Below are positions 1,161-61,830 of a DNA stretch of 64,000 nt, piece after piece. The stretch's first letter is position 1. Every line of letters starts with the position of its first letter. Source of the stretch: Chrysomallon squamiferum (taxonomy: Eukaryota; Animalia; Mollusca); contig CM022677.1 of the NCBI GenBank assembly GCA_012295275.1, forward strand, positions 7,316,001 to 7,380,000. Reading direction: 5' to 3'. The notes below the pieces were generated by a model. The model worked only from the letters and a program-made list of their open reading frames with translations, did no database searches and was not told the DNA's origin. The position numbers were made by a program, and so were the translations under genes.

Positions 1161-1523
1161 CTTCATTTTCCTGCTTATATGTTGTTTGCGATACCTGATG
1201 AAGGTATCCCTTTTGTTGACTGTTGTATCAGAACAGCTTCCTCTACAACCATCAACAAAAAACACAAGTGTGATTCCAAGTGACTTTAGATCAGTGATAA
1301 ATTTACTGATGTAAGCCTCTATAGATGCATACTCTGCTCCACAGATTTGCAAATATGGATTCCGGTTAAAACTTTTCCAAAAAACTTCTAGCAGATAATA
1401 TCTGAATGAATTGAGATCAACAAGAATTTCAATTCCTTCCCGCTGCCTTGCTACCTCGACAAGGTCAAGTTTTTCCGTACAATTATTTCTGAAGCAGTAG
1501 TTGATCAGACCTTTGATTCCCAT
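1161..1523 (-). CDS. Asteroid/FAM120-like XPG/FEN1-type PIN nuclease, copy 1, coding exon 1 (gene continues left of the window)
   Basis: The translation has an MGIKGL start and ILVD and LVFFVDG motifs typical of the FEN1/XPG N region. There is an acceptor TTTGCAG just upstream of the ATG (exon starts 1539) and a donor AAG|GTGAGT at 1161/1160, giving 363 coding nt (121 codons). Positions 1-200 match the 3' end of intron 1 of copy 2 (47500-47700), so exon 2 lies just outside the window. Confidence 0.85.
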
Positions 1524-28911: not shown

Positions 28912-28957
<46 letters not shown>

Positions 28958-29278: not shown

Positions 29279-29283
29279 ATCTG

Positions 29284-33140: not shown

Positions 33141-33180
<40 letters not shown>

Positions 33181-34709
33181 ATAATAATAATAATATTAAT
33201 AACAACAACAACAATATCAGCAACAACGACAATAGGATTAATACCAACAACAACAACAAAAATAATTATAATAAAACAGTAATAGTAATATTATTAAGCG
33301 ATCCTGGCATTTTAATATCGGCACTTTCGCTGACTGTCGTGTAAATTTCCTAGATACTATCGATAACCTGACTTAACTGAAGGAATTTTTTAATTTGATT
33401 ATTTTATTTCATTTATTACTTTATCATTTTCCCTCGAAGATCGTTATTTTGTTATTTTATTTAATTGCAGCGTTATTTGTTTAGATGTTGATTATTTATA
33501 TTGACTGTTCCTTATGATGTATATTACTGACATACTGTTCACACATGATTAAGTACAGTTCTTCTTAGTAGTAGTAGTAGCAGTAGTGGTCGTTGGAGTA
33601 GTAGTAATAACTAATAAAGATATTAGCAGTAGTATTTATAGTTGACTTTTAGTAGTAGTACTAGTAGCAGAACTAGTAATACTAGTCATAGTAATAATAC
33701 TAATAATAATAATAGTGCAAACAAAAGTAATTATAGTTGTTTTACTACTACTACTACGCTATAATAATAATAATAATAATAATTATTATTATTATTATTA
33801 TTATTATTACGTCATGCGATCTAGCTTTCTGTGACAACATGTTAGTTGACTGCATGATAAACGGAAGTGTAGCCAACATCCAAATGTCATCTGTCTGAAT
33901 ATCTACATGGAACTACTGCTCACAACGAGGCCATCCATGATACAACAATAGCACAGTGTTCCTGTGTATATAAAGATATTAGTTCCAGAACGCGATATTA
34001 TTTCACCTGATACAGCTTAACAAATCATATTACAACACACGTATTGTCTGTTTTTCTTTTAATTCATTTGTTTATTTATTTATTTGTTTATTTATTATTT
34101 ATTTGTTTGGTGGGTTTTTACAAGCCAATTTAACAAATATACATTTACACATTTAGGATGTTTTCAAAGAAATTTAACCAAACCATTTCCTATCACTCAC
34201 CTAACCTTAACAATGTTTCCAAATAAACTAAAGAAAAAATATTTTGATAAATGTATATTTAAAGCACCTAACTATAACCCACAGTGAAAAATGTACTGCC
34301 TTTATTTTTTTCTCTCTCACAATATTTAACTTTCAACATGTTTTATAATGTATTTAACATTTTGTATAAGCAGTAAAAAAAAATAAAAGTGGACTTCATT
34401 TGTGTCAGGAACTGAAGTTTCCATTAATTAATACTGAATCTCAACTATTTTTAGTCATAATAATTATAAGCTTTTCAGAGTTATGGCCCTTTGTTTATAT
34501 AAAAATGTGTTCTCAAGCCAGGTCAGTCAATGAATTCATCTTTACTCATTTCACTTCCATCATTAATTCCAGTTTAATCATTCCATCAACAAGAGATAAC
34601 GTTCTCCAGACGATCAAGTACACACTCCAGTTGTTTCATTTCTTTGTCACAGTTTTCTGAACTTGATCTTTTCCATTATCTTGTTTGTTATAAGCCAGTC
34701 TGTTATATG

Positions 34710-35324
34710 TAACATGGACAACGATACATCATCTCATAAGTCGGATTTGTACTGTCTTTGGTTGATGAAAATATGGTAACGCTATATATTATTACACCTA
34801 TGGCCATTGGGATATTCTGTAACGACTCGGATATACACTGAAGTTGACTTTTGCATATTTTGCAGAAATTATTGGTGTGATCAATACTGTAATGGTTTAA
34901 TCTGATTCTTTACCCCTAAAAACATGTGTATAGACACCAAAATTATTTTAATATCATGTGTAATTACTGAGATATTGACGAAAACGAGATTTTCAGTAAT
35001 GGCAGCCTTAATATGCCTATTCAGCACAAAATATTGGTGTGATCTTGACTGAAATGGCTTTATCCGATTCTTTACCGCTCAAAACATGGGGATAGACACC
35101 AAAATTATTTTGATACCATGCATAGTTACTGAGATATTGACGAAAACAAGATTTTCAGTAATGGCGGTCTTAATTTGCATATTGTGCGGATTGCCCAAGG
35201 ATCACAGAGTGGCATCATTCAGATTCTTAAAGAGCACATCTCGGAGGTATAGAAACAGCAAAAAAACTTTGTACAGACTGTATTGCAAGGTTCTCCAAAA
35301 ATCTGGGGTTTGGCAACCGGACTA
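34710..35324. mobile_element. Non-autonomous DNA transposon end with internal tandem repeat of about 147 bp (possibly an Academ-like terminus)
   Basis: Two tandem units containing ATAGACACCAAAATTATTTT...GAGATATTGACGAAAAC...CAGTAATGGC are followed by a terminus ...GGCAACCGGACTA. The family call is from memory of similar repeats, not from a search. Confidence 0.5.
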
Positions 35325-36681
35325 TAGATAGTGATTGCGGCGTTAAAACTTCAAGTGTTATTTTCATGTGGCCGTGTGAAGTTAATTCTAGTTTTTCGGT
35401 GAAACATGTTCTGGTGTTTATAAAATGTTACACTAGATGCGCCCTCTTTATTTCTCGTTATATTTTTGACGTCACATATAAAGCTACTGTTATTTTAAAG
35501 AATTACAACAAGGAAGCTCCATCTAGAGTGAAATCAGTGCAATTTGCCATTGACATTTCATTAGCAACTGTGATATTAATTGGATATTTCTCAACGGAAT
35601 TTATGTTGTGTTTACTACATCAGGTCAGAATAATTTGTTACTCAGCAACAATAACGTAGTGTTTTTGTTAAGACAAATACACTATTTACATTGATAATAT
35701 TACGCTGCTTAATTTTTACAAGTGAACACTGTCTAAATAGTGTTAGATGTTATAAGCTTGATCCACAGAATATATTGTGTGGTATCCTGAAAGATAACAG
35801 TGGATTTTTTAATAGTCTTGTCATTGTGATTGAGGCACATCATGTGATCCAGAAAAAAATGAGAACATATAAAAACATTTAATGACACAATCAAACTCTG
35901 CTAAAATTCGCTCAGTTTAAGTCTGTAAATTTAATTTTAAAAAGTTAACATTATCAAATTTGAATTGACGTTTTATTTACTTCAAGAATTAATTTGATTA
36001 ATCTGAAATACATAAATATGATTTTTGTTAGGTATATATTTGTTTCACAGGCATTATTATAATTACAAATAATTTAATTACTAAAGAATTTGAACTTTTG
36101 CGAAGGGAGACAACTGTAACAGAGCATTCCATACAACGTCATTCAATGAGGCGAACTCTTTCATAGAAAAAAAGAGAAGACATTGTTATCCTTGGCGATA
36201 TACATTCTTGTCCATACAAAATATGATGGAAAATAGAAAAAAAGTTAGATTCAATTAAATCGTATCTGTTGCTACAGCAGACGAAATCAGCTTCGCAGCA
36301 AAACAAAATACGGTTAAAAGAAAAAGATAAGTGACAATTTTAAATAATAATACAACGAGCTCGCTATCTGTGACAATAGCATTGATATTATAACCTGTTT
36401 TAATAATATTACAGAACACAACGAAACAAACTTTTTGTGGACAAACTGTCAATAAATAAATAAATAAGAGAAAAAAGAAATGCTAAAAGATAAATAACAT
36501 TGTACTAGAAACGGTGTAGAAGCCAGTGCGGTATCTCTCCCCTCAGCCTCAAAACAATTGTTAATGAATAACGATGTGTGTGTGTGTGTCTCTGTGTGTG
36601 TTAGTGTGTGTGTATGCATATGTATGTATGTGTGTTTGTGTTTGTGTACATATATTACATATATATCTGTATATATATATG

Positions 36682-36729
<48 letters not shown>

Positions 36730-36820
36730 CATGTATGTATATATGTATGTATGTGTGTATTATGCATATATTAATGTATGTATACATACAGATTATAAAT
36801 ATAGACAGATTGATGAAACC

Positions 36821-36851
<31 letters not shown>

Positions 36852-38018
36852 CGGGTAGTGTTTTTTTAAGCTGTTAACTTTATTTATAGATACAGAAGAA
36901 AAGGGATACTATGTAAACAGTTTTTGAAATGTTTTAAATATATTTATAAATGTATTGTTCTAGGAGTGTATTTCTGTACAATCCCGAATGCTTCTGTATC
37001 CATTTTTTTTTTTTTTTTTTTTTTTTTTATGTAGATGAATATATGTTTAGTAAAAACAGCAGAGAACTAGCTCTGTTATACAGATTAAATAAATTCGAAT
37101 GAAATTAGTAAATGATTACTTTTTAAAATAAAATTCCTAAGCAAACGCGTTTTCTAATTCTAAATATATGCATAAAAACATCAAAACAATAACATACATG
37201 AATATGTGTGTGTGCGTGTGTGTGTGTGTATGTGGAATTGTGCATTCATTATTTCCCATTCTTTTTCTAAGGTTGATTAAAAATAATGCGGATAATTTCA
37301 GAACTATTACATTTCTAAATTGTCTTGGATAGCTTCTTTAATAACAGGCTAGAGTTGTCTTTTAAAACAAACTATTTGAGGTACTACTTTTTCACATTAA
37401 ACTGATTATGACCATGAAATATGTACTTATATCTTGGCTTAAAACTGACTCCGTGTATGACGACTATACGTGAGTGTGTGCAAAACATTGACGGTAGTTA
37501 CAGATAGTTATGGAAATTATAGGCCTAACGTTGGGATTGATCTTTTCTCAAGATAGATCTGAGATATGTCTGTTTAGTCGACATATTTATATTTAGCGCC
37601 GATCTTTCTACGTCACTGAAAATGTTTCGTCGCAAATAGTTTCGTCATTTTCACATTGAGATCAATGGCTGAAAAGCTCAATCGTTTTGAAGAAAATAAT
37701 AGCTTATTTTAATAATTTTTATCAAAAGAATTTCATTGTTTTACAAGCAACGAAAATTAGGAAATATTGATCACAATACAAGTGAAAGTGAGACTAATTC
37801 CTACTAACTCTCGTGACAATGCAGATACCTGTGTGTAAAGGTGGGGTGTGTTTATTTGTTTTTGGTACCAATGGCAGTCTTCCAATTTACTTGTACCATT
37901 TTTTTTTTTTTTTACAAAGATTTGTTTTCTATTTCACTGCTTTGTTGAATAAAACTAATCAAATATATCAGTTTTCTCAACATTAATATAAGCAGTCGTC
38001 AATTCAGTCTAGTCAGCC

Positions 38019-38282
38019 CAGAGCCGGATTTCCCATACAGGCTTTCCAGGCTAGTGCCTAGGGCGGCAGTTTATGTTACATACATTCGTATTTTTACATT
38101 TGATTTATAAATAAATCATTATGTAAATATAAAACCATGTTTTTGCTTTCAACTAGATCATAAGTCATAACTATTCATATTATATAAACTAAGTGGAAAG
38201 GGTGAGGTGACTTGAGCCTTGAGGAGGGGGCGATAAAATTTCTTTTAGCCTATGGGCGACAAGCACATTAAATCCAAACCTG
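38019..38282. mobile_element. hAT-type MITE with 8-bp TSD
   Basis: Imperfect TIRs CAGAGCCGGATTT and AAATCCAAACCTG are flanked by the exact direct repeat AGTCAGCC (38011-38018 and 38283-38290). Confidence 0.85.
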
Positions 38283-38376
38283 AGTCAGCCACACGGAACT
38301 CTCTTTTTTCTTACTTAAGTACCTATCTTTTTTACTTTCCTGTTGTATTTATAACAAATAAATGTTAGTTTAGGTA

Positions 38377-38414
<38 letters not shown>

Positions 38415-38799
38415 GTTTTTATTATTTTATTGTTGTTATTATTATTTATTTATTTACCCTTGTTTAGAAGTTTTTAATCTTTGCAGACGCTAACAAAATA
38501 GATACATTCTGTAATAAAATATTCTATCGTTGTTAATCTTCATGTACTTAGACATTTAATATAAATGTATTTGTCTTGACTCATTATTTTATTACGTTGT
38601 GTCACTTTTCACTTGATTCACATTAAACACTCCTTAATACAGTTTTAAACACACACACTAATATTAATAATCAAAAGAAAGGTTAACACACTACTATTGA
38701 AATTTCAGAAATATACTAAAACATATTTACTTTCATATACACACGAAAACATGAATATACCCTTCATTTGATTAGTTTCTGCTCTGTTACTGACACTGA

Positions 38800-38847
<48 letters not shown>

Positions 38848-39776
38848 TTTTGTTTTAAGAGAAATAAACTTGAAATGTAGTGCTATTATGAATTGTTTGA
38901 TAGGATTATTTGTTGTTTTAACGCATACACAGTTTTAATATATGCGATATCTTACACAGACTACACAGTTTAAACTGCAATGCATATAAAACAAAGGAAA
39001 ATGATTATTTCCAATATCTGTGAGTTGTCATAGTCGTAAGTTTTTTTTTTTTGGTTGTTTTTTTTGACAATGTTTTAAGACCTATATCAAACCTTGGTAA
39101 ATTCCTGGACAATAATTAGCAACTTATGCGAGTTTCATTGTTTTGTGATTTTATTTGGTGCATTAACATAAATTAAGAAGAAGAAAGAAAAAATTAGGTG
39201 AAAAAATAACAACACCGTTTATTTGTAAAATGAACCATATCGATTTATAATTAGTACGTATATGTTAATAAAGATTATTATGTTCCTTTATTTGTTATTT
39301 GTTTTGAACTTTTGTTCTTTCTTGTTTTTAGTATAGTAGATGCAGAAAAATGCGTGATGATTGCCGGTGTTTACGGATTTACGATTGGCTAATAATAAGA
39401 CTAAAAAAGAATTAAAAAACTAACAATAATAATAATAAAAAAAAAAACATTTCGATTTATAATTAGTAAGGTTATTATGTTCCTTTTATTATTTAACTTT
39501 TTTTTTTTTTTTTTTTTTTCACTGTATTAGTTTCGGAAAAAATGCGGGATGATTGCCGGTCTTTACGGATTTACTTCGACGTTTGAAGAATTTTATTCAG
39601 AATTGGTGTAATCGCTTTATCATCCAACAAAGAAGTTTCTTAAAACATTGCAGGAGACAGGTATTACTATTTATTATTATTGTTGTTAATATGTTTGGAT
39701 TTTTTTTTTTGGTTTTATTTATTTATAATTTAAAAGTCATAGCCGCATGATGGCAGCCATCTTAATCGGGAACAAT

Positions 39777-43010: not shown

Positions 43011-43749
43011 CACATACAATCACACACAATCATAAATATGTAGATAGAGATATTCATACATACAAATATACAAACATATATACATACATATACAAAGATA
43101 TAAACAGAAAATAAAATTTTATATCAGTCTATTTTTAAACACTGAAGTGTTTGTTTTTTAAATTATTTTTAATTTACTTAATTATATTTTATTCTTTCTA
43201 AGTTATTACATTTTATATATACTTTATTTATTTTATTCTTTTTAATTTATTTAATTTTAAATATACATTATATTATTTATGTCTTAATTCATTACATATA
43301 CTTATTTTTACTAATCTATGGTTACCAGTAGTGTAATTTCAAAAATGAATATATTAACTTACACTTATCATCAGAACAATAATAAAATGTTGTCCAAACC
43401 GATCCTGAAAATGTTTCATGAGGAAGGGGAAACTCCTCAGACAAATACAAAATCTTTCCCAGTAATGTATAAGCATGGTAATAAATTTCCTAGAAGTAAA
43501 CATGATATTTTAAATTAGTTTTATCACTTTAAATATATATTAATATAAACTCTATCGTATATAAACATATGTATACAGACATCTATTTTATTTTATTGAC
43601 AATAACGGCGGTTTGCAATTTGACTAAAATAGGCCGATTTGGCCACAAGCAATTTTCGAATATATCTGAGATCCATGACTTTTGACACCCTTCTCTTTTA
43701 CACCCATTCTATAGTTGAATTTAGACAAACATAGAAAACTGATCCGATT

Positions 43750-43782
<33 letters not shown>

Positions 43783-46492
43783 GATAAATAAATAAATAAA
43801 TAATCATCCTCTTTTCCTACCTACCTTCCTTATTTGAAAATAAATACATTAACTGTAGCTGCTACCATTCTGAATAAAAAGACAGTTTGACAAGCCAAAA
43901 ATAATAATAATAATAATAATAGTAATAATTGTAATATAATAATAATAATAAATAAATAAATAAAATAAAATTATGATATTTAATGTAAATTTAATTTAAA
44001 AAAAAAAAATGATTTATTTATTTACTTTATTATTATTAGATTTATTATTATATATATAGTTTTTTTGCATCAAAAGAACAAATTATTTAAATTTTGAGAA
44101 ATAAATCTTATTTCTACTAACACGTCACACGGGTATGCAAACTTTATTTTACTAACACAAACGAACAATCTATTCTTGTTCAAACTTACAGAAATAGCTA
44201 TATATCTGTCCTCTCTATTTTAGTTTGATATTTGAAAATATTAACCTGAAACCAGGTTGAAATAGTTAAACAGCGAACATCAGGATTCAGACGAATTTGA
44301 TGGAAAGTTTTTTCATCTTCATTACCAAAAACGACGGCAACAAGGGCAGAGAACTCTTTTCTTTTTATTCTGAGATTCTTTTCCCGGTTTAATATCAAGA
44401 TAAATCTCAGAAGGTAACACTTGAAAGCCTTCTTTGTTTCATATCTCTCAAACCACGGTTTGCTAGAATCTGAAAAACACCCTATAAAAATAATAAATAA
44501 ATAAATAAAATATGTGTGTGTGTGTGTGTGTGTGTGCGTGCGTGTGTGTGTGAAATTAGGAATGAATATTCAGTTGTCGTGAAATTTTCTGATTAGACTC
44601 TGCACTTTGTATCTGGAAACGCACTGGTACAGAAAATCCAATAATCAAATGAGAAATACCAGACGCCGCTGACGAGACTCAAACGTATTACACCCTTTCA
44701 CCTCGATTCCAGAGGCAGACGACAATATTACCGTGACAACGCCGACTGCCTACATGTGTGTATGCGCATGCAAGCATGGGTATGTGTCTATAAGTAGGTC
44801 TCACGTAAATATATACGTGCTTATGTTATATAGCCTGCTATTGTTTCGTTATGAAATAATAATTACAATCTTCAAATTTCTCTTTATTCTTATTTAAATT
44901 ATTATTATCAAAACTATTTTTTCTCGGACAGAATAAAAAATAAATAAATAAATAAAAAGAAAACGAAAATAAGAAACAATCTAAAAAAAACAAAAAAACA
45001 AACAAAAAAACCCTATCAAAAACAAGAACAAGAAACAAACAAACAAAACAATTTTGCTTGTTTACCCAAGGCTCGATCCATGCAAGTCATGATACGGTGA
45101 AAATGTTTTTTATTTTCAGCAGTCCTTTCTTTGTCTATGTCCTGTATTCGTGGAACGTCACTGTCGTCTGCAGCATCCACCTAAACAAAATTCTAAGAGT
45201 TGTATATCTGATACAAGTGTATAGTGTTTGTAATTTAATTAGTGCAGATATTATTAAGTTCAATAATGTACCAAAATAGGTGCGCATATAATTGTGATGC
45301 AGGTGAGTAATATACATATTTGAGATTTATTTAACACAAGTGTTTGATGTAACAAGTACAGTTTATTTATTTCAGTTTCAGAATTTATAAGAATGTTATA
45401 TTTAGTTAATTATGGACTATGATAGTTAATTAGAAAAACAAAATCATAACAACAACAACAAATAAATCCAGTTCAGAAATACATCAAATGACACAATAGC
45501 ATTCGTTCGATTTAAATTCACTCAACATAATGTGCATCACATGTTTATGATCTTAGTCATACTTCACGATCAGCTCGGATATTCTTCTCAGTCAGGGTAC
45601 ATTTTGAATAATTAAAGCCGTACCTGAAACTCCATTACTTCCTCACAGGTTGATTCATATTCCGTGACACAGTTATTATCCCTCGGCAAAACCATCTTAG
45701 AGGAGCCAGCGCCTCGTGCACGCTTTGGTCTTCTAACAGCACAGGCCTCCAGAAGAATCCGTTGTTTAAACCCTTCACGATGCCGCTGAGTTGTCCACTC
45801 CTGATTCTTTCTTCAATGATTAAGGTAGTTTTATCTTTACCCGATCTATCCACGCCATCGGTTAATTCCAGTTTGTAAAATTTACGTGAGTGTTCTACAG
45901 CCTTCTGGAACTTTTCATTATCCGTCTACAAACAAAAATATTTCTAAGTATGTATATGCATAATATATATACATATGTAAGGAAATACACATAATGAAAT
46001 TAATTAAAAGTTATAAGTATCTTGGCACAGAATATGGAAGGATATAAACAAAACTGAAGAAAATATTTAAGAAACCACCGATATACAGAACAGAAAACCC
46101 GCATAATTATAATGTTCATTTTCGTGTGTGTGTCATGATGAAAAATATAAAATTAGTTTCAATAATGAATTCATAATAATTATTTCAACGCATCATTTCT
46201 TTGATATTCAATTACTAAAATACATTTTATATGTCTGTACTATTCTTTATTTAAACATACCTTAATGTCTGTATAATTCTTTATTTCACATGTTTGTAAT
46301 ATAAATTATCTGAATAAATCCTAACTTTAATATTTGTGATTTAAATACATCTTTCCTAACTATATCTTATCTGTATCTTCATAATATTCGTTAATTAAAT
46401 ACATTCACTTACTGAAAAATGTCCTACACTTTAGTAATATTTGTTATTTAAATGCATCTCACATGTATGTAATATTAGTTAAATAAGCCAGC

Positions 46493-46569
<77 letters not shown>

Positions 46570-49322
46570 GTAAAAATGTAACATACCATTGTTTTAGCTA
46601 GACGTGGATGGTTATCCAAAGTCCTGCATGCCTGTATCAGTTCAGCTGCCTCTTTAAAACGACACTGATAGTTAACATCCTGACCCAGTTCATCGAGAAC
46701 CGGGCGAGTGAAATCATTTCCAACTATAATGCTCATTTCCACAAGCTGATCGACATCATCAAACTGAAACAAAGATTCATTTTTCATATTCCAATATACA
46801 ATCTACATTTCTGTGAGTTGATATAAATGATCACACTGAAATAATAATGTATTCACTATTACAAAGTACTGTACTCATTTCTATGTGTTGAGATAAATGA
46901 TCAACAGTATCAGTCGTAACATAATACTAGTATAGACATAACATAATAACTGTAGAAGTCGTAATATAATAACAGTAGCAGTAATACAATAACAGTACAA
47001 GATGTGATATAATAACGATACCAGTGGTAATATAATAACAATAATACTAGCATCAGTTACAGTGTTAGCACATACTAATACAATTTCAAAATTATTTTAT
47101 TACTTTGAGTTGCTCTCTTAGTTTATCAGACGTTATCATCTCACAACGCAAATGTTGAAGATTCTTTGGCCATCTCATTTCTTCATTTATAGGCCAAATT
47201 CCTCTGAATGGAATCACCTTGCTTTCTCTAAATATACAGAAATCTGCGTCATTTGATAAAATGGCAAACGCTTTCTCCCGTTCCTGTAATTCTTTAGCTA
47301 TAACAGGATCAGCCTCAGAAAGAGACTGAACGATTTCACATTCACATTGTTTTATAATGGAGAACATTTCAGTGTCAAAATTAGCCGGGATTGGCGGCTC
47401 AACTGATCTGAGAGTAGAAATAGGTTTTTTTCGTGAACAAACATCAAGTATCTGTAAAGAAACAAATACAAATTATTATTATTATTATTATTAAATTTTC
47501 GCCGTGTTAATTAAGTATGCAGCATAGATTAGTATTCTAAAATTTTATTTTCAAAATATGATAATATAAAGCTACCATTACAAAGCACTTCTACAATTTG
47601 TTATCTTTGGTTTTATCAATCTTACTGATGGAGGTTTTCTTTGGCTTTGATTTGCATTCGATGTGTATCTATATTAGAAATGTATCCGTATGTACTTTAC
47701 AGTGTATATATATATATATATGATCCGAATATTTACCGTATGTTTCAAATTCCACGAAAACTAGTCATGTGTTATTTCACTTTGTTAATTTGCCAACATT
47801 ATCGGCCTAATTTCGTAGAAAATAAATATTGCATTAAAATATGTATTTGTTATCACATTTCTAATCCTGTATCTAGTTGCACAAAACAAATAAATTCGCT
47901 GAATGGATGTAAACTTTATTTTTGCATAACATTACCTTATTAGGAAACATTTCAGAATGATTTTCTAGTTTTACTGAACCAATTCGTGGAATTTAAAAAG
48001 GAAACTAGAAAGTAGTCGTTTATATAATACTGACTGTTCGTTTGAGAGTAAGGAACATCCAGCGAGAACGTGTAAGTTTGATTTAAAATTCTTATTCCTA
48101 TACTTTATATTTAACTGATAGATTATTCATTACTTGTTCATTAAATTATAACTAGGATTAACGAATAGTTTATAGATATATAAGTCATGACTACAAGGAA
48201 GTGTCATATACAAACACTAGAAGGAAACAACACAACACACCACACCAATTACAAATTCATCTTTGTTCAGTAAGATCTCGTAAATTAGTGGGAAAGTTTT
48301 TTGGACCCAGTCAGATTTTGATAGACTAGTAAAAATTGGTATTTACATAAGGATACCGCAAAGATTTTTTCTTTAATTATTTTACTTTTACATTATTGAA
48401 TTTAAAAACTAGATATTCTCAAACTAACAGAAATAGAAAAATCCAACTAAAAACTGCTTTACAAATATGTCTTACATCTTTCCGGTCTGTCTACTCGCTA
48501 TTATATAGAGTAGAATATTTATATACATACATACATACATGCATGTGTACCAATAAATACTCTTGAAATATATCTGTATCTTGTATAGACTATACCAAGT
48601 ACTGGATGTATACCTAAGGTACTTTACATACGTAATGTATAGCTACAATAACCAGATATTTTATACTGTTTACCCGTACACACTACATATATATATCGAT
48701 ATGTTTCGGATTCTATATAATTATATAAAATATCTCGTATATGCTGGAATGGTGGATGTGCATCAAGTGTATAATGAACGTTACCTATACATCTTGGTAT
48801 AGTCTATACAAGATACAGATATATTTCAAGTATTTACTGGTACACACGATATGAATCCAGAAGCGTTAGTTTGTATGGACACATAAGGTATGAATTTTTG
48901 TAATATAAAACATACAGTACGAACTGGTCATACACGTGCATAGGTAATTGCATACTAACCTTGTCTTTCTTTTTTATTTCTTCTTGGCGATACTCGGACA
49001 CTATTTTCCATTTGCTGTGTGTTTTATCAAAATAGTTTCCTCTACTACCATGAACAAAAAACACAAGTGTGATTCCAAGTGACTTTAGATCAGTGATAAA
49101 TTTACTGATGTAAGCCTCTATAGATGCATACTCTGCTCCACAGATTTGCAAATATAGATTCCGGTTAAGACTTTTCCAAAAAGGTTTTAGCAGATAATAT
49201 CTGAATGAACTGAAATCAACAAGAATTTCAATTCCTTTCCGCTCCCTTGCTACCTCGACAAGGTCAAGTTTTTCCGTACATTTATTTTCGAAGCAGTAGT
49301 TGAACAGACCTTTGATTCCCAT
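42241..49322 (-). CDS. Asteroid/FAM120-like PIN-domain nuclease, copy 2, 8 coding exons, about 575 aa
   Basis: Phase-compatible GT-AG exons: 49322-48960, 47451-47104 (SEAD, ILSNDADF), 46763-46587 (IIVGNDF), 45925-45647, 45180-45066, 44469-44246 (EFSALVAVV, DVRCLTISTWFQ), 43489-43363 (PLPHETFSGSVW) and 42335-42241 (TGA). Total 1728 nt. The exon 4 donor CCT|GTGAGG is the least certain junction. Confidence 0.8.
44575..44750 (-). mobile_element. Probable tRNA-derived SINE in an intron of PIN gene copy 2
   Basis: The minus strand begins GGCAGTCGGCGTTGTCACGGT (A-box-like), followed by GTTTGAGTC (B-box-like). It is GC-richer than its flanks. Confidence 0.45.
47722..48502. mobile_element. Unclassified insertion of about 780 bp in intron 1 of PIN copies 2 and 3
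   Basis: It starts GATCCGAATATTTACC right after a (TA)n tract and is absent at the equivalent site of copy 1 (~200-220). A more diverged copy of the same end lies at ~51600-51845. Confidence 0.6.
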
Positions 49323-49457: not shown

Positions 49458-49960
49458 AAAGAAAAATAATAGTTATATAACTGGAACTGCAAAAAAAAGC
49501 TTATTATGTTTATTATGTTTATTTAAATAATTGTATACTATTACTATTCGATCTTTGTACACACAATAATCGAAGTGTTACAACAGTGTCGTAATATTAC
49601 AGCTTATGTAAATAAATACTTATATAGTAATAATGATAATTATATTAATAATTATATAATAAAACTATATTTTCACGAGAAATTAGAATGCTCAACGCAA
49701 GCCTCCCAAATAGTGCATATTTTAAAAATGATAAAGAATTTACAGAAGTGAAATTGTATTCGTTATTTAAAATGAACTATAATTAATTTTATTTTCGAAA
49801 TATTTCTGCAGTTTCGAATACAAATAGCATCTTTATGTTGAAAAACCTCAGTCGCTGCATATTTCTCATAAATCGATGTACATAGCAAATCATTTAAATT
49901 AAACTGAAACTACATGCCTGTAGCATAGGAATAAAATGAAGATGATGATGATAATAATAA
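49458..49960 (+). repeat. Duplicate of 3417-3890 (upstream region of the PIN gene)
   Basis: Shared blocks include TATAACTGGAACTGCAAAAA, GAAATTAGAATGCTCAACG and GAATTTACAGAAGTGAAATT. Confidence 0.88.
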
Positions 49961-50268
49961 TAAAAGAAAGATAATATATTTATTATGCTATAAAAGTTAA
50001 GTGTTATGGAAGGAAAAAGAAGAAAAAAGAGAAATACTTTCTGAATGAGTTATGTATTAGGGATGAATTAATGGATGAAGTTTTATCATCTTTATTATCA
50101 CTGACAGTTAATACCAGGCAGTCTGTTTACACAACTTTGGATGGCCGTGAACAGATCATCTCAACAATTTGTCTCTGGATTACTTCACTCAATTAATTCC
50201 CCATGTGGTGAGGTGAGACTGCACTTTCAGATAAACATACATGACAGTTCCACAACTTCCAGAAATAT

Positions 50269-51207
50269 ATATCTCACTTAGCTGGAATGTACTGGAAGAG
50301 ATATCTCACTTAGCTGGACTGTACTGGAAGAGATATCTCACTTAGCTGGAATGTACTGGAAGAGATATCTCACGTAGCTGGAATGTACTGGAAGAGATAT
50401 CTCACTTAGCTGGAATGTACTGGAAGAGATATCTCACTTAGGTGGAATGTACTGGAAGAGATATCTCACTTAGCTGGACTGTACTGGAAGAGATATCTCA
50501 CCTAGGTAGATTGCATTGGAAGAGATATCTCACTTAGCTGGAATGTACTGGAAAAGATATCTCACTTAGCTGGAATGTACTGGAAAAGATATCTCACTTA
50601 GCTGGACTGTACTGGAAGAGATATCTCACTTAGCTGGAATGTACTGGAAAAGATATCTCACTTAGCTGGACTGTACTGGAAGAGATATCTCACTTAGCTT
50701 GAATGTACTGGAAGAAATATCTCACTTAGCTGGACTGTACTGGAAGAGATATCTCACCTAGGTAGATTGGATTGGAAGAGATATCTTACCTAGGTGGACT
50801 GTATTGGCGGAGATATCTCACCTAGGTGGACTGGATTGGAAGAGGTATCTCACCTAGGTGGATTGCATTTGAAGAGACATCTCACCTAGGTGGACTGTAT
50901 TGGCAGAGATATCTCACCTAGGTGGACTGTATTGGCAGAGATATCTCACCTAGGTGGACTGTATTGGCAGAGATATCTCACCTAGGTGGACTGTATTGGA
51001 TGAGACATCTCACCTAGGTGGATTGCATTGGAAGAGATATCTCACCTAGGTGGACTGTATTGGCAGAGACATCTCACCTAGGTGGACTGTATTGGATGAG
51101 ACATCTCACCTAGGTGGACTGTATTGGATGAGACATCTCACCTAGGTGGATTGCATTGGAAGAGATATCTCACCTAGGTGGACTGCATTGGAAGAGACAT
51201 CTCACAT
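50269..51207. repeat. 32-bp minisatellite, about 29 units, two variant domains
   Basis: The unit ATATCTCACTTAGCTGGAATGTACTGGAAGAG changes at ~50750 to ATATCTCACCTAGGTGGACTGTATTGG(A/C)AGAG. Confidence 0.97.
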
Positions 51208-53127
51208 AGATTCTATTTTTGAAAAAAAATACATATTTTATTAAGAGGAGAAAATCGTTGTAAAAGCTAGTACGAAATATTTCCTAATAAAGTAATGTTA
51301 TGTGCACATTTAAATTCTAAAGATATTTGCAAAGCTAAATCACAGTGCCTTTATAAAATTTCAACCATCCAAATCTTACCGATTCCAAAAAATATTCCCG
51401 TCGATTTACGAGATTTTGTCTTTTGTCAGCTAGGCGCAATTTCTATTTAACGTGTTGTTATTTGCTCCTTATGTAAGTGTTTATTATACTTTTTTTTTAA
51501 ATTAAATAACATATATGAAAAGGCAATTCGTGAACCGGAAGTGCATTTTATTTCTCATTTATGTTATTTAGCGAACGTGAGTAAAGAAACTGAAAAAACG
51601 CATTAGGAATTTTCGTGGAATTAGAAAAAGAAAGTGCATATTCGTTCAGCGAATTTATTTGGTTTCTATAACTGGATGCTGGATTAAAGAACACATTTAG
51701 AAATGTGATATAAAATACATATTTTAATGCGAAATTTATTTTGTGCGGAATTTATCTATACATTTTGGCGAACTTGGTTAAACAAAGAGAAAGCACTCAT
51801 GACTGTTTTCGTCGAATTAGAAAAATGAGGTAAATATTCGGATCAGTGAACATATCAGGAAATATCTTCTCTACTGAGTGGGCTCCCTTCGCTCACTCAG
51901 CACAAAAATAATAATAATAATAATAATAAAAATATAGCGACTCTTCAAGTTTCTTTTTGTTTTGTTAATATGAAATAACTCCTAACCTGTACATAACACA
52001 TATTTCTACCTTTTATTTAACAAAACTATGACAGTTCTACATTCTTATTCACTTTTATCAGTCATGTAGACTTAAATGTGACAATTGTCAGCCGATATAT
52101 AACAATACAGAAAGAGAAATTAGGATACTGAGATATGAAAGAAAAATAGCGAGTAGACAGACCGGAAAGATGTAAGACATATTTGTAAAGCAGGTCTTAG
52201 TTGGATTTTTCTATTTCTGTTAGTTTGAGAATATCTAGTTTTTAAATTCAATAATGTAAAAGTAAAATAATTAAAGAAAAAATCTTTGCGGTATCCTTAT
52301 GTAAATACCAATTTTTACTAGTCTATCAAAATCTGACTGGGTCCAAAAAACGTTCCCACTAATTTACGAGATCTTACTGAACAAAGATGAATTTGTAATT
52401 GGTGTGGTGTGTTGTTTCCTTCTAGTGTTTGTATATGACACTTCCTTGTAGTCATGACTTATATATCTATAAACTATTCGTTAATCCTAGTTATAATTTA
52501 ATGAACAAGTAATGAATAATCTATCAGTTAAATATAAAGTATAGGAATAAGAATTTTAAATCAAACTTACACGTTCTCGCTGGATGTTCCTTACTCTCAA
52601 ACGAACAGTCAGTATTATATAAACAACTACTTTCTAGTTTCCTTTTTAAATTCCACGAATTGGTTCAGTAAAACTAGAAAATCATCTAATGTTATGCAAA
52701 AATAAAGTTTACATTCATTCAGCGAATTTATTTGTTTTGTGCAACTAGATACAGGATTAGAAATGTGATATCAAATACATATTTTAATGCAATATTTATT
52801 TTCTACGAAATTAGGCCGATAATGTTGGCGAATTAACAAAGTGAAATAACACATAACTAGTTTTCGTGGAATTTGAAACATACGGTAAATATTCGGATCA
52901 TATATATATATATGTACTGTAAAGTACATACGGATTCATTTCTAATATAGATACACATCGAATGCATGTCAAAGTTGAAAAAAAACCTCCGTCAGTAAGA
53001 TTGATAAAACGAAAGATAACAAATTGTAGAAGTGCTTTGTAATGGTAGCTTTATATTATCATATTTTGAAAATAAAATTTTGGAATACTAATCTATGTTG
53101 CATACTTAATTAACATGGCGATTGAAA

Positions 53128-53167
<40 letters not shown>

Positions 53168-53202
53168 CATAATCATAATCATTTTTATTTGTTTCTTTAC
53201 AG

Positions 53203-53549
53203 ATACTTGATGTTTGTACACAAACGAACATTTTTCTACTCTCAGATCAGTTGAGCCGCCAATCCCGGCTAATTTTGACACTGAAATATTCTCCATTATA
53301 AAACAGTGTGAATGTGAAATCGTTCAGTGTCTTTCTGAGGCTGATCATGTTATAGCTAAAGAATTGCAGGAACGGGAAAAAGCGTTTGCCATTTTATCAA
53401 ATGACGCAGATTTCTGTATATTTAGAGAAAGCAAGGTGATTCCATTCAGAGGATGTTGGCCTATAAATGAAGAAATGAGATGGCCAAAGAATCTTCAACA
53501 TTTGCGTTGTGAGATGATAACGTCTGATAAACTAAGAGAGCAACTCAAA
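53203..53549 (+). pseudogene. Asteroid-like PIN nuclease copy 3: isolated, inverted exon 2 with a 1-bp deletion
   Basis: It has a TTACAG|ATACTTGAT acceptor and an AAA|GTAATA donor as in copy 2 exon 2, but is 347 nt rather than 348, with the frameshift in the first 11 codons. No exon 1 or exon 3 homolog lies in the duplicated arm. Confidence 0.85.
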
Positions 53550-53659
53550 GTAATAAAATAATTTTGAAACTCTGTTTGTATGTGCTAACACAGTAACTGC
53601 TGCTAGTATTATTGTTATTATATTACCACTGGTACTGTTATTATATCTCACTAAACTCA

Positions 53660-54283: not shown

Positions 54284-55290
54284 TGTGTGTGTGCTTTTTC
54301 TAATGTTTACAGTTGCTTTATATTCCGCCTGTCACTTGTATGATGAAAAGCGGAGGAATTGCAGGAGTAATTATCAGCTCGGGAGTGGTGGGTGTTACGG
54401 GTTCTTGTTTCACGTCTAGCGACAAGGTTCAACACGTTGCCAAGTAACGCGAGTTCCTTTTCTTTTTCTATAAAAGAAGCGAGATTGTTTTAAATTATTA
54501 TTTATTAGTGGAGAAGTGTCGACAAGTCGCTGTCCACTGAAAGCTCTGGGTAACAAGTTTTATATATATATATATATATATACATACATACATACATATA
54601 TTTACTGTTAATTTTATCCATCTATGATATTCTTTACTGATAGTGAATGTTCGGCAATAACCCGAATACAGTTTTAAAAATGACTTGTGTCTGTTGCTTC
54701 TAGTGTATAAAAAGGAGATATGGTATCCGTCTATCTATCTATCTATCTATTATATATATAATACTATTACAGCTACAGCAACAACTAATATTGTTGTTTG
54801 AGTGTGTGTGTGGGTGTGTGAAAGTGATTTGTTCTGTAATCTATTTTAGAAAGATGACGTCACAATATTTATTTTTAGCATCATATCTCTCTACTTTTGC
54901 TTAGGAAGTGTTAGAAAACTGAAATCAAACTGAATATGAAAAAAAATAAAAATAAAAATAAATAAAACAAAATGAAACAATAATATATGGTTTTGTTCGT
55001 CATCCTAAAAATTCTCAAGTCTCAGTACCGGCCGTTCCCCTCCTCTGTGATTATTGTGAATCAGACCCTTGCTCCAACTAACTCGAGCGTGCAGAGAGAA
55101 GAAACAATTAAATATGCTTTGTAACTTTGGGCTTTAAAAGACGAGTTTACAGATCCCCAGTGTTTTATCCAGTTTAGTATCTAGTCACGTTATTGAGATA
55201 TCAGTTACTATATTTTGTTGTTTGTAAGTAGTAGAGAGAGGGGGTCAAAGACCATCCTTCATATCTGTGAATAGAACATTTTATACATAT

Positions 55291-55336
<46 letters not shown>

Positions 55337-55814
55337 CAGTGATAGTAATAACATCGTTTATTAAGCGATCCTGGCATTTTAATATTGGCTGTTTGGCTGA
55401 CTGTCGTATAAATTTCCTAGAGAAATTGTTATTTTATTTAATTGCAGTGTTATGTTTTTAGATGTTGATTATTTATACGTACTGTTCCTTATGATGTATT
55501 ACTAAAATACTTTTCACACATGATTAATTACAGTTCTTAGTAGTAGTAGTAATTGTAGTAATAGCAGTAGCAGTAGTGGCCGTTGGAGTAGTAGTAATAA
55601 CTAATACAGATATTAGCAGTAGTATTTACAGTTGACTTTTAGTAGTAGTAGTACTAGTAACAGTAGTAGTAATAGAAGTAGTAGAACTAGTAATACTAGT
55701 AATAGTAATAATAATAATAGTATGCAAACAAACGCAAACAGTTGTTTTGCTACTACTACTGCCACTATAATAATAATAATGATAATAATAATAATAATAA
55801 TAATAATAATTATA

Positions 55815-55879
<65 letters not shown>

Positions 55880-56809
55880 GTCATGCGATCTTGCTTTCTA
55901 TGACAACATGTTAGTTGAGAAGCCAATTAAACAAATATATATTTACATATAAAACATTTAAAAGAAGAAAAATTTCGAAGGTTTTCGTTAAAACGACGTT
56001 CTCTTTCAGAACTGATTCACTTTTACCAAAAATCTATAAATTGTCAGTTTGTGCTGAATGAAGACACGCTTCAGATTAACTGATATTTAAATCTGCACAA
56101 AAGTTGGACTAACCTAAACCTAACCAAAACCCTAACCAAAATGCTAACCATACTTCTGAAACTCCTCATATGATTTTCCAGGTCTTGCAGCTTTTTCAGC
56201 TATTTAAATTAACCCTGGGCATAAACCTTACTCGAAACAGTGTGATAAAATTAAGGATGTTTTGAAATAAATCTAACCAAATAATTTCCTATCATTTAAC
56301 AATGTTTCCAAATAAACTAAAGACAAAATATTTTGATAAATGTATATTAAATCACCTAACTTTAACCCACTATGAAAGATTTACTAAAATAATAATTTTT
56401 TTCTCTCTCACAATATTTAACTTTCAACATGTTTTATAATGCATTTAACATTTTGTATAAGCAGTAAAAATTTAAAAACTGGACTTCATTTGTGTCAGGA
56501 ACTGAAGTTTCCATTAATTAATACTGAACCTCAACTATTTTTAGTCATAATAATTATAAGCTTTTCAGAGTTATGGCCCTTTGTTTATATAAAAATATGT
56601 TCTCGAGCCAGGTCAGTCAATGAATTCATCTTTACTCATTTTACATCCATCATTAATTCCAGTACAGTCATTCCGTCAACAAGAGATAACGTTCTCCAGT
56701 CGATCAAGTACACACTCCAGTTGTTTTATTTCTTTGTCACTTGAACTGTTTTCTGAACGTGATCTTTTCCATCTTCTTGTTTGTTATAAACCAGTCTGTT
56801 ATATGTAAC

Positions 56810-57421
56810 ATGGACAACGATACATCATCTGATTAGTCCGATTTGTACTGTCTTTGGTTGATGAAAATATGGTAACGCTATATATTATTACACCTATGGG
56901 CCATTGGGATATTCTGTAACGACTCGGATATACACTGAAGTTGATTTTTGCATATTTTGCATAAAATATTGGTGTGATCAATACTGTAATAGTTTAATCT
57001 GATTTTTAACCCCTAAAAACATGTGTATAGACACCAAAATTATTTTGATACCATGTGTAGTTACTGAAATATTGACGAAAATGAGATTTTCAGTAATGGC
57101 AGCCGTAATATGCCTATTCAGCACAATACATTGGTGTGATTTTGACTGAAATGGCTTAATCTGATTCTTTACCCCTCAAAACATGGGAAAAGACACCAAA
57201 ATTATTTTTATACTATGTATAGTTACTGAGATATTGACGAAAACAAGATGTTCAGTAATGGCGGCCTTAATTTGCATATTGTGCGGATTGCCCAAGGATG
57301 ACAGAGTGGCATCATTCAGATTCTTAAAGAGCACATCTCGGAGGTATAGAAACAGCAAAAAAACTTTGTACGGACTGTATTGCAAGGTTCTCCAAAAATC
57401 TGGGGTTTGGCAACCGGACTA
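56810..57421. mobile_element. Second copy of the 147-bp-repeat transposon end, carried in the segmental duplication
   Basis: It is collinear with and highly similar to 34710-35324, with the same flanks. Confidence 0.5.
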
Positions 57422-58887
57422 TAGATAGTGATGGCGGCGTTAAAACTGCAGTGTTATTTTCATGTGGCCGTGTGAAGTTAATCCTAGTTTTTCAGTGAAT
57501 CATGTTCTGGTGTTTATAAAATGTTACACTAGATGCCCCCTCTTTATTTCTCGATATATTTTTGACGTCACATATAAAGCTACTGTTATTTTAAAGAATT
57601 ACAACAACGAAGCTCCATCAATAGTACAATCATACCTGTAATATTCAGTGCAATTTGTCGTATAACTACCTGAATATCATCTCGTTCAAGAAGGATAGTT
57701 GAGAAATTTAGAAATAAAGAGGCCTTCCAGATTCCAATTCTCTGTTACTAACAAAATCAGGATTAGTTTTTAGCTGCACCTGAGATGGTGTTGATAATTA
57801 AATATTGATTTTTTTTTCTAGACAGGAGTGTATTTAAAAGCTGAGGTTACACTTGAAATATTAGCAAATAGTTAATTACATTTGAGTGATATTAATATTT
57901 CTAGTTGGAAGTGCAGTGAATATTCAGGAATAAAATGTAGCAGCCAGATACAAATGACATTTCATTAGCAACTGTGATATTAATGTGATGTTTCTCAACG
58001 GAATTTGTGTTTTTTTTACTATATCAGGTCAGAATAATTTGTTACTCAGCAAAAATAACGTAGTGTTTTTGTTAAGACAATACACTATTTACGTTAATAA
58101 TTTTACGCTGCTTAATTTTTTCATGTCAACATTGTTTAAATAGTTTTAGATGTTATTAGCTTGATCCACAGAATATATTGTGTGGTATCTGAAAGATAAC
58201 AGTGGATTTTTTAATAGTCTTGTCATTCTGCTTGAGACATGTGATCCAGAAAAAAATGAGAACATATAAAAACATTTAATGACATAAAATTCGCTCAGTT
58301 TAAGTCTATAAATTTAATTAATAAAAGTTAATATTATCAAATTTTAATTGACGTTTTATTTACTACAAGAATTAATTTGATTAATCTGAAATACATAAAC
58401 ATTTTGAGGTTTATTAAACGATTTTTATTAGGTATATATTTGTTTCACATTCATTATTATAATTACAAATAATTCTTTTACTAAAGAATTTGAACTTTTG
58501 CGAAGGGAGACAACTGTAACAGAGCATTCCATACAACGTCATTCAATGATGCGAACTCTTTCATTGAAAGAAAAATAAAAGATATTGTTATACTTGGCGA
58601 TATGCATTCTTGTCTATACAAAATATGATGGAAAATAGAAAAAAGTTAGATTCAACGAAATCGTATCTGTTGTTACAGCAGAAGAAATCGACTTCGCAGC
58701 AAAATAAAATACGGTTAAAAGAAAAAGATAAGTGACAATTTTAAATAATCATACAACGAGCTCGCTATCTGTGACGATAGCATTGTTATTATAACCTGTT
58801 TTTTTAATATTACAGAACACAACGAAACAAACTTTTTGTGGAAAAACTGTCAATGAATGTGGGAAATAAATAAATAAATAAATAAAT

Positions 58888-58988
<101 letters not shown>

Positions 58989-59326
58989 AACTACTAAAAG
59001 ATAAATAACATTGGTAATTGAAACGGTGTAGCAGCCAGTGCGGTATCTTTCCCTCAGCCTGAAAACAAATATTAATGAATAACGATGTGTGTGTGTGTGT
59101 GTATGTGTTTGTAGGTGTGTTTATCTGTGTGTGTGACTGTGTGTTTGTGTGTATGTGTGTATGTGTGTATGTGCGTTTGTGTTTGTGTATATATAATATT
59201 TACTTGTACCATTTTTTTTTTTTACAAAGATTTGTTTTCTATTTAACTGCTTTGCTGAATAAAACTAATCAAATATATCAATTTTCTCAACATTAATATA
59301 AGCAGTCGAATTCAGTCTAGTCAGCC

Positions 59327-59505
59327 CAGAGCCGGATTTATCAATAAATCATTATGTAAATGTAAAACCATGTTTTTACTTTCAACTAGATCATAAGTCA
59401 TAACTATTCATATTATATGAATAGGTGAGGGGGACTTGAGCCTAGAGGCGGGGGCGGTAAAATGTCTTTAGCTTATGGGAGGCAAGCTCATTAAATCCAA
59501 CCCTG
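59327..59505. mobile_element. Duplicated, internally deleted copy of the hAT MITE
   Basis: It has the same TIRs and the same AGTCAGCC TSD as 38019-38282, so the insertion predates the duplication. Confidence 0.8.
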
Positions 59506-60187
59506 AGTCAGCCACACGGAACTCTCTTTTTTCTTACTTAAGTACATATCTTTTTTACTTTCCTGTTGTATTTATAAAAATAAATGTTAGTTTAGGTATA
59601 TGTTTGTGTGGGTGTCGTTTTTATTATTTTATTGTTGTTATTATTATTTATTTATTTACCCTTGTTTAGAAGTCTTTAATATTTACAGACGCTAACACAA
59701 TAGATATATACTGTAATAAAATATTTTATCATTGTTAATCTTCATGTACTTAGACATTTAATATAAATGTATTTGTCTTGACTCATTATTTATTTACACT
59801 GTGTCACTTTTCACTTGATTCACATTAAACACTCCTTAATACAATTTTAAACATTGATCGCACACACACACAAACACACACACACACACACTTTTGTTTT
59901 AAGAGAAATAAACTTGAAATTTAGTGCTATTATGAATTGTTTGATTGGATTATTTGTTGTTTTAACGCATACACAGTTTTCATATATGCGATATCTTACA
60001 CAGACTACACAGTTTGGTAAATTCCTGGACAATAATTAGCAACTTACTGTAGTGTGAGTTCTAAGTTTTGTGATTTTATTTGGTGCATTAACATAAATTA
60101 AGAAGAAGAAAGAAAAAATAGGGTGAAAAAAAATAACAACACCGTTTATTTGTAAAATGAACCATATCGATTTATAATTTGATTAAA

Positions 60188-60801: not shown

Positions 60802-61830
60802 TTACTCATATCCTAGTAGAAGACAAAATTCGATTAGCAAAGAAGTTTTTCCAAAACAGAGAAGTAAATATACGACTAATAACAGACTGATTGTTAATGT
60901 GTCCAGCTGGAAAATTTCGTCCGACTTTCCTGACTCTGAGACGTGGCAATTTCCATTTCTTGTGGTGTGCACGATGATGGTGAATCTTTCAGAGCAAACT
61001 GGACAATTTATTCTGCTTCTAGACCACCTCAACAAACAGCTGAAAAAACCCCTCATGTAAACATGAGTCTTCATGACATCCATCATCCTCTGCTTTCCGT
61101 TTTCTAGATGTTGATATCTCTGGTCCTCCACATGATGTTTCTCCAGAGTAACTTTCTGAAATTATATTTTTTGTTGTTTGAACTATTTCTATTTTTATTT
61201 TATTTTATTTGCAGTAAACTGGATTCAGCAATGGTGAGTGATGCTGATGTTGATGTCCCTGAAATTTCTCCTTGTGATGTTTCTCCAGAGTCACTTTCGG
61301 AAGACATTCAAACTTTTGGAGGCTTCTCCGGGCATTCATCATCCTCTGCTTTCCGTTTCCTAGATGTTGATGACCCTGGTCTTTCTCCACGTGATGTTTC
61401 TCCTGAGTCACATGTTTAGTTTCAGACTGTTGTATTGATTCAGCAGTGGTGGTTGATGCTGATGTTGATTTCCTTGGTCTTTCTCCAAGTGATGTTTCTC
61501 CAGAGTCACATTTTGAAGTTTCAGACTGTTGTATTGATTCAGCAGTGGTGGTTGATGCTGATGTTGATGTCCCTGGTCTTTCTGCTCTGTGATGTTTCTC
61601 TAGAGTCACATTTTGAAGTTTCAGACTGTTGTGTTGCTTCCGCAGTGGTGGTTGATGCTGATCTTGATGTTCTTGGTCTTTCTCCACGTGATGTTTCTCC
61701 TGAGTCACTTTCGGAAGACTTTAGAACTGTTGGAGTCTTCTCCGGGCATTCATCATCCTCTGCTTTCCGTTTCCTAGATGTTGATGTCCCTGGTTCTCCA
61801 CATGATGTTTCTCCAGAGTAACTTTCTGAA
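60802..61830 (-). pseudogene. TOPORS-like RING remnant preceded by Ser/Thr-rich coding repeats of about 99 bp
   Basis: It reads DSCLHE-[frameshift]-FFSCLLRWSRSRINCPVCSERFTIIVH, resembling the second half of the TOPORS RING (CLHKFCFRC...W...CPLCK..F.SI.H). The first CxxC is absent. Upstream are repeats SGETSxGERPRxSTSASTTTAES and RKRK motifs, with frameshifts. Confidence 0.6.

Follow-up and report, generated by a model that had tools for sequence, protein, structure and literature searches.

The 64-kb window analyzed here (the term denotes the whole stretch of DNA under study, at its full length) is AT-rich, contains microsatellites and two N gaps, and carries pieces of three copies of a single FEN1-like nuclease gene. 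The question raised by this locus is why two of these copies are identical over one part of the first coding exon and sharply divergent over another, and what this pattern implies for the encoded proteins. To address this question, we examined the layout of the copies, the predicted position of the divergent segment in the protein fold, the state of the catalytic residues, and the variation among homologs and in public sequencing runs. The features are collected in Table 1. Copy 1 is represented by its first coding exon, with an AG acceptor 16 bases before its start codon, and the remainder of the gene lies beyond the left end of the window. Copy 2 is the entire gene, with eight coding exons extending from 49322 to about 42241 on the minus strand. 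Copy 3 is a fragment for which neither exon 1 nor the later exons were found within the 64-kb window, and a 1-base deletion near 53222 shifts the frame of its exon 2. The preliminary description of the locus had treated copies 2 and 3 as working genes, which does not hold for the sequence as assembled: each carries a frameshift, in exon 4 and in exon 2, respectively. Neither of these lesions, nor the His that replaces the FVDG Asp of copy 2 (D91H), was mentioned in that description. A homologous block is located upstream of copies 1 and 2 (3490-3877 and 49582-49961) and, together with the AG dinucleotide shortly before the start codon, suggests the presence of an untranslated first exon.

Table 1. 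Coordinates of the nuclease gene copies and of the codons discussed in the text
Feature	Position	Strand	Remark
Copy 1, first coding exon, 121 codons (M1-K121)	1161..1523	-	GT donor at 1160
Copy 1, arch patch, residues 96-121	1161..1238	-	
Copy 2, first coding exon, 121 codons	48960..49322	-	
Copy 2, arch patch, residues 96-121	48960..49037	-	loop 96-103, helix 104-120 (exon-only model)
Copy 2, codon 91, His replacing the catalytic Asp of FVDG	49050..49052	-	
K104, equivalent of FEN1 K93, kept	49011..49013	-	
Y111, column of the conserved gateway Arg of the family (equivalent of FEN1 R100)	48990..48992	-	
Copy 2, exon 2, residues 122-237; EAD (E167, D169) and NDAD (D189, D191)	47104..47451	-	
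Copy 2, exon 3, H2TH GND motif (D254)	46587..46763	-	
Copy 2, exon 4, frameshift near 45694-45698	45624..45925	-	public contigs carry a form with 16 more bases
Copy 2, exon 5	45066..45180	-	
Copy 2, exon 6, acceptor at 44481 or 44469, both in frame	44246..44481	-	
Copy 2, exon 7	43363..43489	-	
Copy 2, probable final exon, including the stop codon	42241..42335	-	weak profile match, E 0.024
Copy 3, inverted fragment: part of intron 1 and exon 2	52145..53650	+	exon from 53203

The first coding exons of copies 1 and 2 differ at 18 of the 26 positions in residues 96-121, are identical in residues 57-90, at the DNA level as well, and have K104, Y111 and R112 in common. At the protein level, the preliminary description was accurate on these points down to the residue strings, and the signal is stronger than originally reported. 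When the 31 residues that differ over the exon were shuffled, none of 100,000 replicates placed 18 of them in any 26-residue window, and 28 of the 78 bases of the patch are different (36%) vs 16 of 423 (3.8%) in three stretches of flanking intron (Fisher p = 1.5e-14). The patch changes are distributed between residues 96-103 (6 of the 18) and residues 104-121 (12 of the 18); a second, weaker cluster of changes covers residues 37-56, in the helix that follows the first catalytic Asp, on the wedge side. Exon 2 likewise begins with a short divergent segment, as previously described: between copies 2 and 3, a stretch of 16 bases contains five substitutions and the 1-base deletion, compared to eight substitutions in the other ~320 bases. 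Two trivial origins of the patch were considered and rejected, namely, a compensated frameshift (the identity is 0.64 at shift 0 and at most 0.38 at other shifts) and a tract borrowed from elsewhere in the window (no 16-base match).

In the nucleases of the FEN1/XPG class, the segment after the FDG motif forms the gateway through which the substrate is threaded and which contains a conserved Lys and a conserved Arg (K93 and R100 in FEN1). The AlphaFold2 model of a full-length homolog of the window proteins, P0003 (pLDDT 94.6), predicts a FEN-like PIN fold in which the wedge, the arch and the H2TH element are all present; Foldseek matched this model to EXO1 and FEN1 (E 1.7e-6), and in the VIA comparison, EXO1 (5V0A) was the best match (Z 15.2, rmsd 3.5 A over 296 residues), tied with FEN1 (3Q8M; Z 14.9). 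The profile of the family matched EXO1 with an E-value of 7.5e-8, and a profile made from seven sequences gave no match in the PDB. In the P0003 model, a 7-residue loop connects the FVDG strand to a helix formed by residues 103-131, which correspond to residues 98-126 of the window proteins, all with pLDDT above 90; in the model built from exon 1 of copy 2 only, residues 90-103 form a low-confidence loop (block means 53-68) and residues 104-120 a confident helix. The earlier assignment of the patch to a FEN1-type helical arch is thus borne out by the P0003 model, which puts it in the predicted arch helix after the FVDG strand. As described in a classification of these nucleases, the arch is an insert after the second strand that is partly disordered without the substrate (PMC5499597). 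Projection on a helical wheel put changed residues on every face of the arch helix, so that substrate contact and binding of an antagonist are not separable by this approach.

P0003 and its family resemble EXO1 and FEN1 in the predicted fold, the acidic motifs, the Lys at the start of the arch and the K-x6-R spacing, and differ from them in that the sequence identity is about 13-19%, the loop between FVDG and the Lys is about 6 residues longer, and there are about 300 additional C-terminal residues. Furthermore, the copies in the window contain a Tyr in place of the gateway Arg and belong to a tandem cluster that changes over time, instead of being a single conserved gene. FEN1 and EXO1 are single-copy genes.

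A profile search with an E-value limit of 0.001 detected 483 proteins, the 150 best-scoring of which were considered, and the alignment used below consists of 98 rows spanning the N-terminal region, out of 154 sequences tried. The family comprises uncharacterized lophotrochozoan proteins of 610-650 amino acids from molluscs, an annelid and nemerteans, several of which are named "Asteroid domain-containing protein" in UniRef; examples are LOC121390373 of Gigantopelta aegis, LOC110456509 of Mizuhopecten yessoensis and MAR_003937-003949 of Mya arenaria. The lophotrochozoan Asteroid-domain proteins are collinear with copy 2 across all exons, and the nearest ones are about 45-52% identical to it in exon 1; searches with the exon-1 protein returned nothing above 49% identity, and the best local match among all the proteins compared is 52% identical, so that none of them represents the gene itself as a full-length annotated protein. 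The homolog from Argonauta scores 333 bits vs 511 bits for the gastropod and bivalve homologs; the cephalopod origin initially suggested by the repeats was dropped for this reason, in favor of a lophotrochozoan, likely molluscan, host. The matches of the family to the Pfam models XPG_I and XPG_I_2 are mostly below the cut-off; for XPG_I_2 (cut-off 24.2 bits), exon 2 scores 12 bits and the close homologs 12-21 bits, and some distant members exceed the cut-off, for example, P0089 with 39.6 bits. The Asteroid_N and FAM120A models were not returned for any window protein in the scans run. The Atlas clusters nearest to P0003 by features are annotated as Asteroid_N, FAM120A or XPG_I_2 (scores 0.93-0.98), with Asteroid_N/FAM120A-type families on 11-99% of the members, and the best match in a viral library is an Asteroid-domain protein. 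The likeness to ASTE1 and Drosophila asteroid (Pfam XPG_I_2) and to FAM120 thus comes from the Atlas neighbors, the UniRef names and the viral-library match, with XPG_I_2 itself below the cut-off here. The family tree was built from search hits only, which include no human ASTE1, and its deep branches are weakly supported. We regard the family as a putative FEN1-superfamily protein that sits near the Asteroid/FAM120 group. The 2017 classification lists the Asteroid-type family as having no known function (PMC5499597), and no paper on selection or expansion in the family was found in the literature searched, mostly the main texts of non-subscription articles. In five homologs (P0085, P0137, P0140, P0158 and P0185; 1324-3455 amino acids), one of them from the sponge Sycon ciliatum, an Asteroid-like domain is located N-terminal to a DEAD/DEAH helicase; the automatic name of the helicase-fused sponge homolog is spindle-E-like.

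As assembled, copy 2 retains six of the seven acidic metal-binding residues (D36, E167, D169, D189, D191 and D254), with a His at position 91, and copy 1 contains both acidic residues that fall in the window (D36 and D91). The proposed equivalence of K104 with K93 of FEN1 holds, and column 104 is Lys in 80 of the 98 homologs. R112, which had been taken for the retained gateway Arg, turned out to be off by one: the R100 column is 111, and this residue is a Tyr in both copies. Column 111 contains an Arg in 77 of the 98 homologs and a Tyr in none of them, and only 6 of the 98 have an Arg in column 112; in 66 of the 67 homologs that have both residues, the conserved Arg follows the Lys by seven residues. 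When P0153 was aligned to the Methanopyrus kandleri FEN-1 (4WA8), both the Lys and the Arg seven residues on were matched, with a 5-residue gap in the loop. A different arch register, in which K85 of EXO1 falls in another column and the arch contains a gap, was obtained from the HMMER profile alignment to EXO1 and was rejected because the K-x6-R spacing is fixed, the length of the preceding loop varies, and the pairwise alignment to the archaeal FEN-1 agrees with the register adopted here. The register of Y111 is set by sequence alignment, and the conflicting EXO1 profile register is the main source of uncertainty on this residue. By this alignment, the gateway Arg is lost, not retained, in copies 1 and 2. 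The Trp that the family has at position 108 is replaced as well, by Phe or Val: the close homologs mostly keep the K-x-x-T-W-x-x-R pattern (W in 38 of 45, R in 40 of 46), whereas the window copies read KRDTFIRY and KWKIVSEY. R112, or R110 of copy 1, might act as a partial stand-in for the gateway Arg; in the alignment with P0153, the archaeal FEN-1 carries Arg at these neighboring positions as well.

All 31 codons that differ between copies 1 and 2 in the first coding exon replace the residue and none is silent. For the whole exon, the Nei-Gojobori estimates are dN 0.163 and dS 0.021, with a Fisher p-value of 0.001 (0.006 on the most synonymous paths), so that an excess of amino acid change between the two copies, as previously suggested, is upheld over the exon as a whole. 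Among the codons changed at a single base, 0 of 20 are silent (p = 0.007), and codons 1-90 harbor 13 replacement and no silent changes (p = 0.029). For the patch alone, pN is 0.41 and pS 0.12, and the excess of dN over dS is at the border of significance (p = 0.055; 0.17 if the paths with the most synonymous steps are taken); moreover, this pS exceeds the background, which counts against diversifying selection. Synonymous sites diverge at the level of the introns (about 2 of 80 vs 16 of 423), and the patch at a level ten times higher. The entropy of the family alignment also counts against diversifying selection, the arch being the least conserved segment (mean 2.65 vs about 1.97), but among entropy-matched sites, 14 of 20 differ in the arch compared to 10 of 52 elsewhere (p = 0.0001). 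A metagenome scan for dN/dS in another lineage yielded one locus only, too few for an estimate.

We further compared the contigs from five of 11 public runs (X1, X2, X4, X5 and the RNA run X9), which are not phaseable to individual copies. A third arch type is present in the contigs of X1, X4 and X5, that is, in three runs from three studies; it is copy-1-like and adds, among the differences listed (30 of 34 for the X4 record and 10 of 12 for the next record), eight replacement codons and one silent codon that neither copy has, three of these lying within codons 57-90. The copy-2 arch type has His91 in X1 and Asp91 in X5, so that D91H is not fixed; this arch type was not among the contigs of X4, which are filtered and may miss forms that are present. 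For exon 4, a form that is 16 bases longer and restores the homologous frame was found in all four runs compared. Exact matches to the shorter exon 4 of the window were found in X4 and X5, extending 25 bases past the joint, where the rule of the tool is 31 bases, and the deletion form was not among the contigs of X1 and X2, to which the same caveat of filtering applies. Because the contigs of X4 and X5 match the shorter form exactly, the frameshift in exon 4 of copy 2 is likely to be real rather than an assembly slip. X2 contains an 8-base deletion elsewhere in exon 4. Two of the 19 exon 4 variants in the public reads are silent, which is indistinguishable from neutral (p = 0.18), with no sign of purifying selection outside the arch. 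The RNA run X9 yielded only two short, imperfect contigs at a depth of about 3. The run data read as a cluster of apparently living and dying copies. Two further differences concern exon 4 (45624-45676 and 45727): some contigs of X1, X2 and X4 lack 51 bases from its end, and a paralog with a 6-base in-frame insertion is present in all four runs.

A second lineage (P0001-P0039) was sampled with 16 hand-picked proteins, compared over their N-terminal 200 residues. In this set, variability peaks in a 26-residue window that overlaps the arch (17 of 26 positions; 54 of 20,000 shuffles); in the exact equivalent of the patch, 14 of 26 positions are variable, and the equivalent of residues 57-90 is the least variable segment, with 2 of 34. 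One full-length class of this lineage (631-636 amino acids) contains Asn in place of the FVDG Asp, Asn in place of the Lys and mostly Lys in place of the gateway Arg; the Glu of GEAD is missing from it. This class of full-length paralogs devoid of three catalytic or gateway residues is represented by several sequences (P0004, P0005 and P0024-P0038) and is a candidate for a kept pseudo-nuclease. In Mya arenaria, several paralogs with neighboring locus tags are located on one contig; these retain the catalytic residues, which we count against the interpretation favored below.

In our assessment, with chances slightly better than even, the locus is an array of tandem Asteroid-like FEN1-superfamily paralogs in which the first exon has diverged by diversifying selection on the nucleic-acid-gating surface and from which copies are being lost, an immune (antiviral) driver being the likeliest. 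Of the components of this interpretation, diversifying selection on the gating surface of a nuclease that is itself likely weakened is probable, and an immune contest as the driver is more tentative, at somewhat short of even chances. Under the proposed scenario, the ancestral, single-type gene would have encoded a structure-specific 5' nuclease that had all seven acidic residues and the gateway pattern K-x-x-T-W-x-x-R, and after duplication, the gateway Arg would have been swapped for Tyr in the lineage of copies 1 and 2. In a study of human FEN1, the K93A and R100A mutants cut about 2000- and 7000-fold more slowly (PMC3837164). Because of the R100A effect, we infer that catalysis would be sharply reduced by the Tyr, so that these copies could be mainly binders or slow cutters. 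Selection would then have kept altering the arch and, more weakly, the helix of residues 37-56, while copies died by frameshift and new ones arose. The clustered Mya paralogs and the helicase fusions of distant family members are in keeping with this interpretation; the broken copies and the neutral-looking exon 4 variants, which would also fit relaxed constraint, speak against it. Primate TRIM5, OAS1, MxA and APOBEC3 are paralog clusters under host-pathogen selection, and the present locus resembles them in the replacement-only divergence packed on one surface, the tandem arrangement and the dead copies, all of them features seen here at the sequence level. The immune lead itself is indirect and comes from a fish gene of presumed orthology to the lophotrochozoan family: trout aste1 is listed among interferon-induced genes (PMC12934228) and among the genes checked after vaccination (PMC8619301). 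A broader proposition, that invertebrate Asteroid-like FEN1 proteins are an unrecognized class of antiviral restriction factors or decoys, appears unlikely at this point; under this proposition, duplicates in separate lineages would lose catalytic or gateway residues and turn into pseudo-nucleases or nucleic-acid clamps, with the helical arch diversifying so as to follow viral nucleic acids or evade inhibitors made by viruses.

The same abrupt boundaries of the patch could arise if old, divergent arch haplotypes were kept, with or without balancing selection, and the flanks were homogenized by gene conversion, such that the patch would be a mosaic tract and not the outcome of recent adaptation one site at a time. 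The 64%-identical patch is indeed adjoined by 102 identical bases in codons 57-90 and by an intron stretch in which 114 of 115 bases match, two or three bases differ in 9 of the 18 patch codons that changed, and the third arch type mixes copy-1 and copy-2 letters, with at least four of eight sites outside the listed differences matching copy 2. Old haplotypes fit less well with the fact that all eight residues shared in the patch use identical codons, without a single purely silent change, and with the replacement-only pattern that extends to codons 1-90. We therefore consider such an origin improbable as the principal explanation, although mosaic tracts produced by gene conversion may contribute alongside diversifying selection. 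A driver from within the genome is quite unlikely in our estimation: selection would be real, with transposons, satellite DNA or meiotic drivers as the opponent, or else the copies would have acquired new substrates unrelated to immunity, in the repair of germ-line DNA or in the control of RNA. The trimming of 3' overhangs by human ASTE1 together with shieldin (PMC9879193) is compatible with a repair or germ-line driver, and the helicase-fused sponge homolog points in the same direction, but the name spindle-E-like was assigned automatically and is not a test.

Decay of pseudogenes or relaxed duplicates, with the patch as a local hot spot of mutation in a helix that is variable by nature, would account for D91H, Y111, the two frameshifts in the window and the deletion in X2, as well as for the neutral appearance of the exon 4 variants and the peak of family entropy in the arch segment. 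Yet, the neutral expectation is about 22% silent changes, against 0 of 31 codons observed; the public runs contain a copy-2 arch with an intact D91 (X5) and frame-intact forms of exon 4 (4 of 4 runs); and the excess of changes in the arch survives entropy matching. Accordingly, we judge pure decay to be distinctly unlikely. In FEN1 and EXO1, the arch is part of the catalytic machinery and is under tight constraint. Proteins that are otherwise almost identical and carry most of their differences in this element provide a natural set for the study of how it determines the choice of substrate, and diversifying selection on the gating surface would offer a lead on roles of Asteroid-type proteins beyond DNA repair. 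If the immune reading fails, the locus would represent ordinary paralog turnover.

The rest of the window contains several other features. Between copies 1 and 2, on the minus strand, there is a TRIM-type gene (27353-29280) with a RING, a coiled coil and an NHL propeller, which looks broken because its coding pieces overlap in frames shifted against each other near 27790 and perhaps 29190. A second duplicated block (32643-39252 and 54799-60179) consists of pieces that are 78-97% alike; it contains no exon of the nuclease gene, and the open reading frames scanned in it gave no Pfam match. A 167-codon frame on the plus strand (20470-20973), for which the Pfam scan also gave no match, resembles a fragment of a hAT/ZBED transposase. 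A minisatellite with 29.4 copies of a 32-base unit is located between copies 2 and 3 (50269-51209), and repetitive open frames composed of degenerate repeat units are present on both strands at 61205-61821.
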